Shown in pieces: positions 1 through 63,822 of a stretch of DNA of 64,000 bases. How positions within the stretch are numbered: the first letter of the stretch is position 1; each line of letters opens with the position of its first letter. The notes under the pieces were generated by a model. That model had not been told where the DNA came from and made no database searches. It was given only the letters and a program-made list of their open reading frames with translations. Source of the stretch: Escherichia coli (lineage in GTDB: Bacteria; Pseudomonadota; Gammaproteobacteria; Enterobacterales; Enterobacteriaceae); the NCBI RefSeq assembly GCF_002854065.1, contig NZ_CP024147.1; one strand, 5' to 3'. A program made the position numbers and the translations under genes.

Positions 1-132
1 AACTCTCTTTATATATTCAGCAGATAAAAATATAACTCATTAACAAAAATCATTTGTTTTTGCCCCGTTATATTCACCGTTACAGCGACTTACAAAATTA
101 AGTCATTCACTCACTGACGCCGATTAAATATT

Positions 133-141
133 CCTGTATCG
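133..141. repeat. Target-site duplication CCTGTATCG, left copy
   Basis: Identical 9-mer directly abuts both IS1 ends (133..141 and 910..918). Confidence 0.85.
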
Positions 142-156
142 GGTAATGACTCCAAC

Positions 157-660
157 TTATTGATAGTGTTTTATGTTCAGATAATGCCCGATGACTTTGT
201 CATGCAGCTCCACCGATTTTGAGAACGACAGCGACTTCCGTCCCAGCCGTGCCAGGTGCTGCCTCAGATTCAGGTTATGCCGCTCAATTCGCTGCGTATA
301 TCGCTTGCTGATTACGTGCAGCTTTCCCTTCAGGCGGGATTCATACAGCGGCCAGCCATCCGTCATCCATATCACCACGTCAAAGGGTGACAGCAGGCTC
401 ATAAGACGCCCCAGCGTCGCCATAGTGCGTTCACCGAATACGTGCGCAACAACCGTCTTCCGGAGCCTGTCATACGCGTAAAACAGCCAGCGCTGGCGCG
501 ATTTAGCCCCGACGTATCCCCACTGTTCGTCCATTTCCGCGCAGACGATGACGTCACTGCCCGGCTGTATGCGCGAGGTTACCGACTGCGGCCTGAGTTT
601 TTTAAATGGCGGAAAATCGTGTTGAGGCCAACGCCCATAATGCGGGCGGTTGCCCGGCAT
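157..660 (-). CDS. insB: IS1 InsB reading frame (167 aa); expressed as InsAB' transposase by -1 frameshift at the A6C motif (597..603, minus strand)
   Basis: ORF track 167 aa ending LNIKHYQ; reverse complement of 597..603 is AAAAAAC inside the insA/insB overlap. Confidence 0.93.
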
Positions 661-854
661 CCAACGCCATTCATGGCCATATCAATGATTTTCTGGTGCG
701 TACCGGGTTGAGAAGCGGTGTAAGTGAACTGCAGTTGCCATGTTTTACGGCAGTGAGAGCAGAGATAGCGCTGATGTCCGGCAGTGCTTTTGCCGTTACG
801 CACCACCCCGTCAGTAGCTGAACAGGAGGGACAGCTGATAGAAACAGAAGCCAC
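579..854 (-). CDS. insA: IS1 InsA (transposition repressor, 91 aa)
   Basis: ORF track 91 aa [37 protein letters not shown]..., recognised InsA. Confidence 0.95.
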
Positions 855-909
855 TGGAGCACCTCAAAAACACCATCATACACTAAATCAGTAAGTTGGC
901 AGCATCACC

Positions 910-918
910 CCTGTATCG
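910..918. repeat. Target-site duplication CCTGTATCG, right copy
   Basis: Identical 9-mer directly abuts both IS1 ends. Confidence 0.85.
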
Positions 919-992
919 TTCTTAATGAGCAGTCTACTTATATTCATATAATCAATGAATATTAATCAATATATAATACATAGGGAATGTAA

Positions 993-1160
993 ATGAACAA
1001 ATTTATTAAAGTTGCACTGGTAGGTGCAGTACTGGCTACGTTAACTGCATGTACTGGTCATATTGAAAACCGTGATAAGAACTGCTCTTACGACTACCTG
1101 CTGCACCCAGCAATTTCTATTTCTAAAATCATTGGCGGTTGCGGTCCTACTGCACAGTAA
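993..1160 (+). CDS. yhfL: Small lipoprotein YhfL (55 aa), MNKFIKVALVGAVLATLTAC lipobox signal; absent from the ORF track (below 60 aa)
   Basis: ATG at 993, TAA at 1158..1160; translation MNKFIKVALVGAVLATLTACTGHIENRDKNCSYDYLLHPAISISKIIGGCGPTAQ matches YhfL from memory. Confidence 0.85.
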   Translation: MNKFIKVALVGAVLATLTACTGHIENRDKNCSYDYLLHPAISISKIIGGCGPTAQ

Positions 1161-4043: not shown

Positions 4044-4922
4044 TTATTGGAAAAATTGAGAGGGATTTTCACGTAACATCACATCCACATCGGCCTGACT
4101 GAATCCTGACTGGCGCAATTGCGGAATAAAGGTGGTTAGTAAATAGTCATAGCCATAACCACCGTTGGCTTTTAAATGGGAGCGGCGCGTAATATCCATC
4201 GACAGCATGACGCGGTTCAGCAACCCACGGTCGCGTAGCGCATGAAGCATCGCAATACGCTTTTCGTCCGGGTAGTAACTGTTCTTACCAATGGTGTCGA
4301 ACTGCACATACGCGCCGAGATCGATCATCTTCAAAATGTTGTCGAGGTTGTCTTTCAGATCGCAGTGACCAACGGTGACGCGCGAAAGATCAACTCCGTG
4401 GGCTTGCAACAAAGCCAGTTGCTCCAGCCCCATCGTGCTGAACGACGTATGCGTGGAGATCGGGCGTCCGGTCTGGTTATGTGCCAGCGCGGCGGCAATA
4501 AATACCTTCTCTTCCAGCGGCGTAATCTTCCCTTCGCTGGAGCCGATCTCCGCGATGATCCCGGCTTTCAGTTCCGTGCCATCGATACCCTGCTCAATTT
4601 CATCGACCATCTCCTGCGCCAGTTCCTGCACGCTGCGGGTCGCCACATGTTCCGGGAAAAACGCGTCCTGGTAATAACCGGTACAGGCCACCACGTTGAT
4701 CCCCGTCTCGCGCATTACATCGAGCATAAATTGCGCATTGCGCCCCATGTAACGGTTGGTCATCTCAATCACATTACGCACGCCCCGGGCCATCAGGTCG
4801 TTCATCTCCTGGCAAATGAACGAATACTGATCAAGGCGGCAGTCCACGTTGTTTTTAAAGCCGGAGAGATCAATATGCAGATGCTCATGGGCGAGGGTGT
4901 AACCCGTCGGATCAAAACTCAT
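4044..4922 (-). CDS. php: Php, phosphotriesterase-homology protein (amidohydrolase superfamily, 292 aa)
   Basis: ORF 292 aa, HxH metal-binding start [20 protein letters not shown]; synteny. Confidence 0.9.
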
Positions 4923-6145
4923 AGGGTGTCTCCTGCAAACCGGAGGGAGGAAAGAAAAGAGCGACCATTTTGTGGCGGTGGCGCACGGAAAAATTCACAC
5001 ACGGTAGCCCCCACATCAGAAAGCGTGGTGCGCACACCGATCTGCGTAGTGACCAGCCCTTGCTGATAAACCAGCACTGGCACCACTTCACGGGTATGGT
5101 GGCTGTGACCAATGGTCGGATCGTTACCGTGATCCGCCATCACGACCAGGCAATCATCTGGCTGCATCGCCTCGACAAGCCGGGCAAGATTACGGTCAAC
5201 GACCTGCAAACGTTCGGCATAACTTGCGACGTCTTCTGCGTGACCAGCGAGGTCGGTTTCCTGAATGTTGGTGCAAATAAACGCTGTCTGATGGGTGATA
5301 AATTCGTCGAGGGTGATATCCATAATCCGCTGGCTATCCACCAGATTTTGCCAGCTCACGCCATAAGGATTGTTGACGATATCTGCCACCTTACCCACCA
5401 GCACGGTTGGCACGCCTGCTTCATACAGTTTTTGTGGCACCTGCACTTTTTCATCGACGCCATAGCCCATATGCACGACCTGGAAACCGTTGTCATAAGC
5501 GCCAGAACGCGGCGCATTAATACCAATAAAGCGCCCTTCTTTGCTTTCTGCGGCATCGAGAATACGCTGACTGTCGGTTAACAGGCCGCCAAATGTAATG
5601 ACCCGACCGACCTGTACCTGGTCACGCACGATACGACCAATTTTGATTGCGTCGTCAAAAGAGATCACAGAGAGATTGGCGGTAATGTTATAGACTTGGC
5701 CTAAATCCGCCTCGAGATTATCGCCAATCGCAACCGCCTGATTGACTCACAGAAATTGCAGTTCATCGCCACGGCGCTCCACCTGCCAACCGGCGGATAC
5801 TAATGCCTGCTCAACACGGTCAATCACATCGCGAAAGGGCATCCGCAGCGGCGGTAACGGGCGCGTGCCTAAAATTTCCTGATGCCCCATAAAGGTATCG
5901 CCACCTTCATGTTGCAGCTCTGCCACACCCCAGGTTGCGGAGTCTGACGGCTGCATATCACCTGGCGCATAACCCAATGCGTTGATTAGCCCCAGCTTCT
6001 CCAGCGTTGGTAGCTGCAAATGCGGCAGCTGGCTCAGGATGTGACCACAGGTATTCGCTCCGGCATCTTGCGGGCGCACCAGCGTGACATCTTTCATTGC
6101 ACCTACGCCAAAGCTATCAATCACTAACACCACAAATCGCGCCAT
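4919..6145 (-). pseudogene. yhfW: yhfW (phosphopentomutase-like, 408 codons) interrupted by an in-frame TGA at 5747..5749 (codon 133)
   Basis: ORFs 5747..6145 and 4919..5668 are in the same frame; the combined span of 1227 nt equals K-12 YhfW of 408 aa plus stop. Confidence 0.8.
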
Positions 6146-12220: not shown

Positions 12221-13507
12221 TTACTTCAGATCGGCCTGTACCTGACGCAGCGGTTTCGCCCACGGGTTTTTGGCCTGGACATCTGCTGGCAATGTAGATA
12301 CCGCTTTTTTCGCCTCTTCTTTCGAAGCGTACACGCCAGAAACCAGGACATACCACGGCTGACCATTACGCGTCGTTTCATAGACAACGTAGTTTTTCAG
12401 ATTCTCTTTCTTCGCCCAACCGTTCAGGTTGTCGTAGTTAGAGGAACTGCTCAGCTGCAGAGTGTAATGGCTGGACGGTGCCGATTTCAACGAACCCACA
12501 TTACCTGCGGTCTTCCCTCCAGCGGCTGGTGTTGCCGTGGTTTGCGCCGGGGATGCCGTCTGTACTGGAGCCGTAGTCGCCGTCTCTTTTGGTGCTGGCG
12601 TAGAAGTCGCAGCCGGTGCCTTCGTGCTCGCCACAGGAGCAGCTGGTTCAGTACGCTTCGGCGTCTGTGCTACCGGCTTCGGTTCCGTTTTCACGGTTGC
12701 TTGCGGTTTTTTCGGTTCAATCACCGCCTGCTGACGAGCTGGACGCGTAGTGGCCGGACGTTCAGCAGTTTGCGTTTTCGCCGTGTCACGCGATGCATTG
12801 CCATTGCGTACTGGCGCGACAGTTGCTGGTTCAGTCGGCAATGTAGAATTGACCGCCACATTGTTCAACTGTTGCTGATTTTGTGGCTGGGTCAGCGCAT
12901 TGTTCAGGTCACCCTGCACTTCAACACGTTGTTGACCATCCGTTGCCGCCGGGGTTTGCCCTTGAGTCGGCGTAGAAGAGATCGGCGGCAGAGAAACATC
13001 CTGCTGAGTATTTTCCGCAGACGTGGTTCCCGGCGCTGGCTGCACGCCATTCGCCTGATCGGTCGCATTGCCAGCAAGATCAATACTCTTCTCGCCAGAC
13101 GCGGTTTGATCGCTGGAAGTGGTCGAGGGGGCTTTTAGCGCAGAACCGATACCGATGATCAACAGCAGTAGAACCAGAATGCCGACGCCCATCATCATAT
13201 ACTGACGAGAAGCGGGTTTACTGGCTGCTTTTTTGCGCTTACGCGGACGACGCTCTACGCGCTCTTCATCCACGGTTTCATCTTCGGACTCGTCAATTTC
13301 TTCTTCGATTTCCGGTTCCTCATTGCGCTCTTTTTGCGCACGAGTCGGACGGCGATCGTCAGTGTCATCAAGTTCAATATCATCAAAATTGATCTGCGGT
13401 TCGCCACGTTCAGTACGCTCAGAACGTTCAGAAGATTGACGAGAACGACCAGTACGACGATCGCTGGGATCGGGTTTCAGCTCGTCTTCTGGTTTGAATT
13501 CATCCAT
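12221..13507 (-). CDS. damX: DamX, cell-division protein with C-terminal SPOR domain (428 aa)
   Basis: ORF 428 aa with acidic N-terminus and Pro/Thr/Ala-rich linker. Confidence 0.93.
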
Positions 13508-42584: not shown

Positions 42585-42701
42585 GAGTACCAAACATACC
42601 CCTGACATCTGACTACAATAATTAGTTTTAGTGGGTATCAGTCGTGGTGCCGCAATATCTCTGTTCCCGATTGGGATAATTAGAGTTTGTCGTCAGAAAA
42701 T

Positions 42702-51964: not shown

Positions 51965-52249
51965 ATGAATATGAAACCGGAAAGCAAAGAAGCGCCAATC
52001 AATATCAGAGCGAAAGCCTCACAGCGTGACCTGATTGATATGGCAGCGAATCTGGTCGCAAAATCGCGCACTGATTTTATGCTGGATGCCGCATGCCGTG
52101 AAGCGCAAGACATCTTATTAGATCAACGACTATTCATCCTTGATGACGAGCAATACGATGCGTTTCTCGCTGCCCTGGACGCCCCCATCACTGCTGAGCG
52201 TCAGGCCAAAATTAACGCGTTGATGAATCGTAAATCGCCATGGGAATAA
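51965..52249 (+). CDS. DUF1778 (TacA/AtaR-like) ribbon-helix-helix antitoxin, 94 aa
   Basis: INIRAKASQRDLIDMAANLVAKSRTDFMLDAACREAQDILLDQRLF...DEQYDAFLAALDAP resembles the DUF1778 antitoxin family; stop overlaps the toxin start (ATGGGAATAA). Confidence 0.75.
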   Translation: MNMKPESKEAPINIRAKASQRDLIDMAANLVAKSRTDFMLDAACREAQDILLDQRLFILDDEQYDAFLAALDAPITAERQAKINALMNRKSPWE

Positions 52250-52725
52250 CGGCTCCTACTCCCCTAACGTCTGAACATAATCTGGCTGACTTTTGCTGTT
52301 CCGATCACGGGATGAATGAATGGCTAAAAAAGAAAGCATTAAAAAATCACAGCTCCGGTCTGTCTCGTGTTTACGTTATCTGTATTGCCAATACCCGCCA
52401 GGTAATCGGCTATTACTGCCTTTCTACAGGCAGTATTCAACGTAATTTGGCCCCTGGAGCCATGCGACGTAATGCTCCCGAATCGTTGCCTGTTGTCGTA
52501 TTAGGCAGACTGGCAATTGATCAAGCCTGAGCAGGTAAAGGGTTGGGCGTCGCATTGTTGAAAGATGCAGTCTATCGCACAATGTCCATAGCTCAACAGG
52601 TAGGGGTTCGTGCGCTCATTGTTCATGCCTTAGACGATTCAGTACGCAATTTCTATCTGAAGTATGCCTTTGTACCTTCACCATTCCAGTCACTTACCTT
52701 ACTGTATCCCATTACTCTGGAGTAA
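52240..52725 (+). pseudogene. GNAT-family acetyltransferase toxin (TacT/AtaT-like), 162 codons, broken by in-frame TGA at 52528..52530
   Basis: ORFs 52240..52530 and 52543..52725 share a frame; the stop falls in LGRLAIDQA*AGKGLGVALL, immediately before the GNAT acetyl-CoA-binding G-x-G motif. Confidence 0.75.
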
Positions 52726-60534: not shown

Positions 60535-60630
60535 GCCTGATGCGCTACGCTTATCAGGCCTACGTGGTTTATGCAATATGTTGAATTTGCATGATTTTGT
60601 AGGCCTGAGAAGGCGTTCACGCCGCATCAG
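60535..60630. repeat. BIME: two REP units in inverted orientation (GCCTGATGCGCTACGCTTATCAGGCCTAC and GTAGGCCTGAGAAGGCGTTCACGCCGCATCAGG)
   Basis: REP consensus recognised downstream of glpD. Confidence 0.75.
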
Positions 60631-62304: not shown

Positions 62305-63822
62305 TTATTCCATTGTTGGATACAGCGGCACATATCCCACATCTTCTACCAGACTCTGCCCCTGCGGCGTTAAAAACCATTCGACCAGTTTTTGTGTTTC
62401 TGACGTTGTATTTTCCCTCGTTACCATAAAGGCATCGACGATATAGGGATATTTGCCGTTGCGAATATTTTCCGCAGTCGGTGTAATACCGTTAATCGCT
62501 AGCAGTTTTATATTTTTATCAGCATTCATTTGCGTCGCGTAATAGCGGAAGGTATAGCCTATTGCGTTGTTTGTATTACGGTATTCGGCAACGACTTTAA
62601 TCATTCCCTCCATCACGCTTGCCACTTCCATTTCCTGCGGCGAGATCATGCGGACATTTTTCATGACCTGTGATTGCATCACTGTCTGGCTGCCAGAGTC
62701 TTCCGGGCGCTGCCAGGTCTGGATCTCCTGATCGTTACCGCCAACAGTACGCCAGTTGGTAATTGCACCACTGAAAATGTCACGCACCTGTTGTTCAGTC
62801 AGGGAATTAACCGGATTATCCGCATTGACGATGAAAACGAATGCTTCACGGGCAAAGGGGGTGTACAGCAAAGTGACACCAGATTCCTTTGCACGTTTTT
62901 TTTGCCCACCGGAAGGTTGCGCCACGAAAATAATATCAGCATCGCCCTTAACGATTTTGTTATATGCTTCTGGCGTACGAGAGTTTTCCAGATAATCCCA
63001 AACGTGAAAATCCTCTGGTATTACACTTAATGCATAAAATGCAGAAGCATAAATTGGGTACGCAGCCGTGGCGCCATCGATTCGCGGCCAGTTTTGCCTA
63101 AACTGAATTTGCGGTTTGCCACGCAGCGGCGTCAGTCGATTATTGAGTTTATCGGGTTGCCAGGCCCAGATATCAATATTTTCGCGTACACCGACACCAG
63201 GATTGAGCTGTTTATATAAATAACCCTGATAACCAGCGACAAAACCAAGCATGAGAAGGATAAACAGGAGGGAATTACGGCAACGTAGCCCGGATGTACC
63301 GGTTAAAGGATGTCTGGTTGGCCGGCCGTACCCCAGCGAAAAACTGATATGCGCGCCAACGGGTATAATGACTATCCACCAGTACTCACCTCCGACTACT
63401 GAGACTAACAAAACGCCCAGCCAGGGGAGCATAAGATCAGCCAACCAACCCGATCCCATCTGGTGAAATTGATAATCTGCCAGATGCAGCGCGATTATCC
63501 AGCCAACCAGGATTAATAAAGCGGGTACTAAAAAAAGACATTGTCGCCAGACGGCTATTTCTCTTTTTTCTGGTGCACTATCGCCTGCCCATACTCGCCC
63601 CGAGAAAAATAGCATTAATGCGCCCAGCGCCAGCATAAAAATGTTGAGCAGAAGGTAAATTGTTGGCGTGATAAGGATATTACAAACTTCAATAATACCG
63701 GCAAGTCCGACACCCAGCATAGCAACAACCGCCGCCAAAAATTGCGTCAGTATGGGGATGCCGAAAAAAGTCATTACCAGCGAGGACAAAATCCATTTTC
63801 TGTTTTGCATTATTCTTTCCAT
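62305..63822 (-). CDS. Uncharacterised fusion protein (505 aa): N-terminal multi-pass membrane domain plus C-terminal PstS-like periplasmic binding domain
   Basis: First about 215 aa hydrophobic; C-terminal domain paralogous to the downstream lipoprotein (QRPEDSGSQT, IGYTFRYY, TPTAENIRNG); -10-like TATAAT 18 nt upstream. Confidence 0.8.
   Translation of the reverse strand: MERIMQNRKWILSSLVMTFFGIPILTQFLAAVVAMLGVGLAGIIEVCNILITPTIYLLLNIFMLALGALMLFFSGRVWAGDSAPEKREIAVWRQCLFLVPALLILVGWIIALHLADYQFHQMGSGWLADLMLPWLGVLLVSVVGGEYWWIVIIPVGAHISFSLGYGRPTRHPLTGTSGLRCRNSLLFILLMLGFVAGYQGYLYKQLNPGVGVRENIDIWAWQPDKLNNRLTPLRGKPQIQFRQNWPRIDGATAAYPIYASAFYALSVIPEDFHVWDYLENSRTPEAYNKIVKGDADIIFVAQPSGGQKKRAKESGVTLLYTPFAREAFVFIVNADNPVNSLTEQQVRDIFSGAITNWRTVGGNDQEIQTWQRPEDSGSQTVMQSQVMKNVRMISPQEMEVASVMEGMIKVVAEYRNTNNAIGYTFRYYATQMNADKNIKLLAINGITPTAENIRNGKYPYIVDAFMVTRENTTSETQKLVEWFLTPQGQSLVEDVGYVPLYPTME

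Follow-up and report, generated by a model that had tools for sequence, protein, structure and literature searches.

Upstream of yhfL, the Escherichia coli chromosome studied here carries an IS1 element between two copies of one 9-mer. This arrangement raises the questions of how and when the element arrived, whether it can still move, and what it does to the gene beside it. The window, that is, the whole stretch of 64,000 nucleotides (64 kb; NCBI RefSeq assembly GCF_002854065.1, contig NZ_CP024147.1) that was analysed, contains the element close to its left end. The best explanation, which we hold with high confidence, is a recent and simple transposition of an IS1R-type element into the cysG-yhfL spacer, after the split of this strain from its closest sequenced relatives.

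Anatomy, isoform and likely activity of the element

All the defining features of the IS1 family that can be read from sequence were present in the element (Table 1). The matches to the two terminal inverted repeats were each unique within the window, with a chance expectation of 0, and both ends of the element matched exactly the IS1 ends of K-12 and of plasmid R100. In a repeat scan, the inverted arms at 141-164 and 887-910 were 79% complementary. The Pfam search of the InsAB' translation returned PF03811 (E = 7.9e-21), PF12759 (E = 6.3e-28), and PF03400 (E = 3.7e-78), and the domains Zn_ribbon_InsA, HTH_Tnp_IS1, and DDE_Tnp_IS1 were all full-length, with DDE_Tnp_IS1 covering profile positions 1-131 of 131.

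Table 1. Features of the insertion and its surroundings (positions are those of the window)
Feature	Position	Strand	Remarks
Left copy of the target-site duplication (TSD), 9 bp, CCTGTATCG	133..141		abuts IS1
Complete IS1, IS1R type	142..909	-	768 bp
IRR, right terminal inverted repeat, insB-distal end, GGTAATGACTCCAACTTATTGAT	142..164	+	exact 23-nt match, 0 mismatches
insB frame, 167 aa, open	157..660	-	DDE_Tnp_IS1
InsAB', 232 aa, via -1 shift at A6C	854..157	-	predicted translation
insA, 91 aa, GTG start, repressor and DNA-binding protein	579..854	-	Zn_ribbon_InsA, HTH_Tnp_IS1
A6C (AAAAAAC), -1 programmed frameshift site	597..603	-	IS positions 307-313
insA promoter (PIRL), CTGCCA-16-TATGAT, partly within IRL	875..902	-	sigma-70-like scan; predicted
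IRL, left terminal inverted repeat, yhfL side, GGTGATGCTGCCAACTTACTGAT	887..909	-	exact 23-nt match, 0 mismatches
Right copy of the TSD, 9 bp, CCTGTATCG	910..918		abuts IS1
Proposed yhfL core promoter, TTAATG 922-927, 19-nt spacer, TATAAT 947-952	922..952	+	predicted; aligned to K-12
yhfL, 55-aa DUF4223 lipoprotein gene, intact	993..1160	+	Pfam DUF4223, E = 5e-38

A standard promoter and terminator scan of positions 1-1300 gave the inward insA promoter as the sole sigma-70-like match, and its placement agrees with the report that this promoter partly overlaps IRL (Smith et al. 2025, PMC12428005). The same study describes the role of A6C in frameshifting and an InsAB' length of 232 aa, as in the window copy. 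An earlier note, made from the letters of this DNA, had described the element as complete with intact inverted repeats, insA, insB, and A6C, and the exact ends, the open frames, and the 232-aa InsAB' confirm this description. In an Rfam scan that covered the whole window, no match fell within or close to IS1; the only one at the gathering threshold was the ES036 (CssrF) sRNA at 60556-60598 on the minus strand (39.3 bits vs a cut-off of 37.6).

Alignment to a reference IS1, a check that the earlier note had proposed, identified the isoform. The window copy and the IS1 of plasmid R100 (IS1R, NC_002134.1, 21225-21992) were the same at 767 of 768 nt, with the same inverted repeats, insA, A6C, and insB, and the single difference was a synonymous base at IS position 127 (T instead of C). 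The InsAB' proteins of the two copies were identical (WP_095033700.1), and this accession is the annotated transposase both of the R100 copy and of an identical copy in strain CUWW06. The two differ in their setting: the R100 IS1 flanks the r-determinant, whereas the window copy is chromosomal and lies upstream of yhfL.

The IS1 copies of K-12 fall at different distances. The type II copies IS1B and IS1C were also identical to the window copy at 767 of 768 nt, with the same inverted repeats and frameshift site, but they carry a private 704T>A change (InsB L152Q, InsAB' L217Q), where the window copy has Leu, like IS1A and IS1R. IS position 704 corresponds to window position 206. The type I copies IS1A and IS1E have their architecture, length, and inverted repeats in common with the window copy and were identical to it at 760 of 768 nt. 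The eight substitutions lie at positions 127, 262, 298, 301, 304, 393, 396, and 444, and they give InsA F81 in place of L81 and change five residues of the InsB frame (5, 17, 18, 19, and 65). IS1D had three differences from the window IS1, with private changes 50G>T and 631C>T.

These comparisons bear on activity. According to Smith et al. (PMC12428005), who name the type I elements IS1A and IS1E 'consensus', only these two transpose in K-12, and IS1B, IS1C, IS1D, and IS1F are nearly inert. The window copy has eight of the nine differences that separate IS1B and IS1C from the active IS1A and IS1E, so that a shared backbone could lower its activity. It might then look intact but be inert like the K-12 copies, having been mobilised in trans or having reached a dead end. 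We regard this as improbable. The ninth difference, 704T>A (InsB L152Q), is private to K-12 IS1B and IS1C and absent from the window copy, whose InsAB' is that of the R100 IS1. Copies with the same protein were found inserted separately in at least eight genomes (CUWW06, FDAARGOS_1284, EC14, AL.H8, 1283, S30, PSJ-07, and HCP6S3_I1), indicating that the backbone of the window copy is evidently mobile. The identical DNA is also widely spread, the exact 768 nt being found at 100% identity on plasmids of Escherichia, Klebsiella, Enterobacter, Salmonella, Citrobacter, and Shigella. Since CUWW06 carries a 768/768-identical IS1 elsewhere in its genome, this variant has been mobile in the lineage of the window strain itself. 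The window copy is thus probably still active, as the earlier note had proposed, a reading supported by the R100-identical transposase and by the identical copy at a different site in CUWW06. The private changes of K-12 IS1B/C and IS1D, and not the differences from IS1A that they share, may explain the inertness of those copies.

Target-site duplication, empty sites, and age of the insertion

Other exact 9-mer repeats arose by chance in the same 1.3 kb in the repeat scan. The identity of the two flanking 9-mers is therefore weak evidence by itself, and the empty site was tested directly. The query consisted of window positions 1-141 joined to 919-1300, with one copy of CCTGTATCG; the left flank inside the window amounts to 141 nt only. 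This query was matched at 523 of 523 positions in four E. coli genomes (XJ34, XJ6-3, 100416, and CUWW06), and a contiguous version of the empty site was present in 5,357 of the 5,426 complete E. coli genomes. K-12 also has a single copy of CCTGTATCG at the site. The presence of one copy in the empty sites indicates that the duplication is a genuine TSD produced by a simple insertion.

The earlier note had read the 9-bp duplication as the mark of a simple insertion that had not been rearranged, and had named the empty site of related strains as the comparison that could overturn this reading if their flanks were different. The sister strains have exact empty sites with one CCTGTATCG, both flanks are colinear, and the flanks of the empty-site strains are not different, so the reading stands. 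A composite transposon or a rearrangement was also considered and rejected: there is one IS1 in the window, and both flanks are colinear with those of the empty-site relatives. The site has a GC content of 31% (about 50 nt on each side), compared with 52% for the window. IS1 is reported to prefer AT-rich targets and to make duplications of 8-9 bp (PMC5009759), and the AT-rich site with its 9-bp duplication fits this preference.

The age of the insertion was judged from CUWW06 and 100416, the two closest relatives found. Over 61,908 bp, CUWW06 differed from window positions 910-62817 by seven substitutions, with no gaps, and on the left side of the site this strain was identical to the window for all 141 nt; 100416 differed by 18 substitutions across 63,091 bp. 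At yhfL, both strains are empty. Two of the seven CUWW06 substitutions lie 14 nt apart, at 42586 and 42600 in the nfuA-gntT intergenic region, and the others are at 13289, 27716, 33689, 55525, and 55817. The occupied junction was absent from all 5,426 complete E. coli genomes, in which IS1 in this region was always at another position, and a search of metagenome contigs with the exact 35-nt right junction gave 0 matches. Because the occupied junction was found in no other genome or metagenome contig, the insertion is recent and lineage-specific. The description 'relatively recent' in the earlier note is thereby borne out, both closest relatives being empty. Precise excision of IS1 in the relatives was rejected, considering that 5,357 genomes are empty and that both closest relatives would have needed an exact excision.

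IS1 is a multicopy repeat that is often misplaced by short-read assemblers, and the element might accordingly be an assembly artefact; or else the occupied allele might have been imported by homologous recombination. Together we consider these explanations very improbable. A misassembly would not create such exact junctions, at which 9 bp present once in relatives are perfectly duplicated. The flanks on both sides are 100% identical to those of the closest relatives, and a donor is lacking, as the same occupied allele was found in no complete E. coli genome and no metagenome contig.

The 768/768-identical IS1 of CUWW06 lies 62 kb away from the yhfL site, at the window equivalent of 62809-62817, with the TSD AACCGGATT. 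It splits a PstS-family gene (502 aa, window 62305-63813, minus strand). In the window strain and in 100416 this gene is intact and its site at 62809-62817 is empty. The simplest reading is that each of the two sister lineages gained an IS1 independently once they had split, which indicates that IS1 is moving now in this group. Sister genomes are thus set apart by two different new IS1 insertions in a stretch of 64 kb, and the insertion at yhfL is a clean lineage marker against relatives that differ by about one substitution per 10 kb.

Two interrupted genes elsewhere in the window were observed in passing. yhfW (phosphopentomutase-like; 4919-6145, minus strand) has an in-frame stop at codon 133, and the annotations of CUWW06 and 100416 also give it as a pseudogene. 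The second, a GNAT-family (TacT-like) toxin gene (52240-52725, plus strand), which adjoins a DUF1778/TacA antitoxin gene between malT and rtcA, has an internal stop at codon 97.

In the mechanism that we propose, an IS1R-type IS1 would have transposed into the AT-rich cysG-yhfL spacer through a staggered 9-bp cut at CCTGTATCG. InsA would act as repressor of the insA promoter in IRL, and the InsAB' DDE transposase would arise through rare -1 frameshifting at A6C. An insertion at about -50 of the inferred yhfL start would keep the core promoter and shift the upstream spacer.

The proposed yhfL promoter beside the insertion

The product of yhfL is annotated in relatives as YhfL WP_001031834.1. 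The earlier note had placed the element 84 bp upstream of this gene. The two do adjoin, with IS1 next to the yhfL ATG at 993, but 83 nt intervene, and 84 is the offset count.

Shimada et al. (2014, PMC3946193) reported a constitutive RpoD promoter, TTAACG-19-TATAAT, in the cysG>yhfL spacer of K-12, and the spacer carries the flag 'HNS' in that study. The yhfL promoter of the window is predicted from sequence and from this genomic SELEX work rather than from a mapped transcription start. The standard scan of positions 1-1300 missed any yhfL promoter, and a more lenient scan recovered the published one. The end of IS1 at 909 lies 12 nt upstream of the proposed -35 hexamer, at approximately -50 from an inferred start near 959. 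The core -35, the -10, and the ribosome-binding region of yhfL were untouched by the insertion, and the spacer DNA further upstream was displaced by 777 bp. The earlier suggestion that the element disrupts the native yhfL promoter is therefore not favoured by the sequence, as the proposed core promoter is whole.

Outward promoter activity had been suggested as another route to yhfL. Since IRL faces yhfL, the insA promoter fires away from the gene. IS1 also carries an outward -35, TTGGCA, at 896-901 on the plus strand, and such a -35 forms hybrid promoters when a -10 is suitably spaced (PMC8764528, PMC9330008). At the yhfL junction, the hexamers 16, 17, and 18 nt past TTGGCA were GTTCTT, TTCTTA, and TCTTAA, all of them poor -10 candidates, so that no -10-like hexamer was found at this spacing. 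The lenient scan likewise found no hybrid promoter starting in IS1 with a score of at least 8 of 12. With only poor -10s past TTGGCA, outward promoter activity on yhfL is not favoured by the sequence either. Like the IS1 insertions with regulatory effects at bgl, afaA, osmB, and acrEF, this one lies in AT-rich regulatory DNA within a few tens of bp of a downstream promoter, in a spacer flagged for H-NS; it forms no usable hybrid promoter.

Published insertions show how variable the outcome may be. In one study, an IS1 insertion raised the transcription of afaA by about 7 log2, another upstream of osmB cut its transcript by about 2 log2, and ugd was unchanged (PMC8764528). With one gene up, one down, and one unchanged, the effect on yhfL is not predictable from sequence. 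Judging by the features above, a small change or no change in yhfL expression is the most likely outcome, and an effect through displacement of the upstream AT-rich, H-NS-flagged DNA is possible.

Expression of yhfL might be raised if the insertion separates the promoter from upstream H-NS-bound AT-rich DNA or if a hybrid promoter is formed. The spacer combines the 'HNS' flag with a constitutive RpoD promoter (PMC3946193), and PMC9678765 describes a precedent in which an IS insertion upstream of Pbgl activates the H-NS-silenced bgl operon. For the hybrid promoter there is the outward TTGGCA together with the strong increase of afaA. We nonetheless consider a rise rather unlikely, in view of the poor -10 candidates, of a hybrid score that never reached 8 of 12, and of the lowered osmB and unchanged ugd (PMC8764528). 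A fall in yhfL expression seems to us about as unlikely as a rise. It could follow from the loss of an UP element or of activator sites above -50, or from blocked read-through from nirBDC-cysG. All DNA upstream of about -50 has been replaced by IS1, but the insertion has spared the core hexamers (-35 and -10) as well as the ribosome-binding region, and in the alignment a terminator-like hairpin already stands 3' of cysG. We know of no activator of yhfL. The precedent for a fall is osmB, with the decrease of about 2 log2 given above (PMC8764528). Little or no change in yhfL expression thus remains the preferred expectation.

Recurrent IS1 insertion around cysG, yhfL, and yhfS

Among the complete genomes, the same 0.3-kb AT-rich region in the cysG-yhfL-yhfS neighbourhood has been struck by IS1 in many other strains. 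A junction probe found at least 22 genomes with an IS1 IRL end near yhfL, and more with the opposite orientation; these counts of IS1 in the spacer are lower bounds, with one place per record, among the matches listed. The 9-mer GGGAATGTA (window 984-992), in the ribosome-binding region before the yhfL ATG, is an exact-site hot spot. It holds IS1 in the minus orientation in FDAARGOS_1284 (an IS1R-type copy) and in 2020S05-235 (a 93%-divergent IS1), while AL.H8 and strain 1283 have it there in the plus orientation. The insertion at GGGAATGTA in HCP6S3_I1 is accompanied by an adjacent deletion into frlA.

Further targets were used in other strains: TATATAATA in EC14, GTAGGTGCG inside yhfL in GPEC1446, and the 8-bp variant target TGCTAATG in PSJ-07. 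The target CTAATGGGT, in the K-12-type spacer, holds IS1R-like copies (S30) and IS1A-like copies (HH194M, 2018-01-1CC, and others). IS1 also lies inside yhfS in the ST131 isolate 86, with the 8-bp duplication AAAGAGCG, and in E. coli B REL606. These hits in ST131 and E. coli B show that the yhfL-yhfS neighbourhood has been struck in several unrelated lineages. The site of the window insertion is not among the reused targets, and CCTGTATCG served as an IS1 target in none of the 5,426 complete genomes.

The neighbourhood itself varies among strains. In the window, yhfS follows directly after yhfL (1161-1266), and, as in several other strains, the fructoselysine operon frlABCDR that separates the two genes in K-12 is missing. 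Towards cysG (window 1-66), the spacer exists in two divergent haplotypes, one of the window and CUWW06 type and one of the K-12 and S30 type, which are nearly identical downstream of approximately position 67.

The repeated use of a single 9-mer, by more than one IS1 type and in either orientation, far exceeds the expectation under uniform targeting, and the pattern points to a local IS1 target preference in this region. A stronger interpretation, namely that the spacer is a recurrently selected site at which IS1 hits retune or silence YhfL, as parallel adaptation beyond target preference, appears to us improbable.

IS1 is a textbook element of known behaviour, and the copy described here is IS1R apart from one silent base; the sole new thing is an insertion site private to this lineage. 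By itself, the finding matters little, being that of an ordinary, intact IS1 that the earlier note had described correctly. It opens two modest leads. The exact-site hot spot at the yhfL ribosome-binding region belongs to a natural allele series, to which the window insertion adds a site, and in which the effects of IS1 position and orientation on a simple promoter could be followed. The gap between the inert IS1B and IS1C of K-12 and the widespread mobile variant is a single amino acid, which offers a testable explanation of the result of Smith et al. (PMC12428005).
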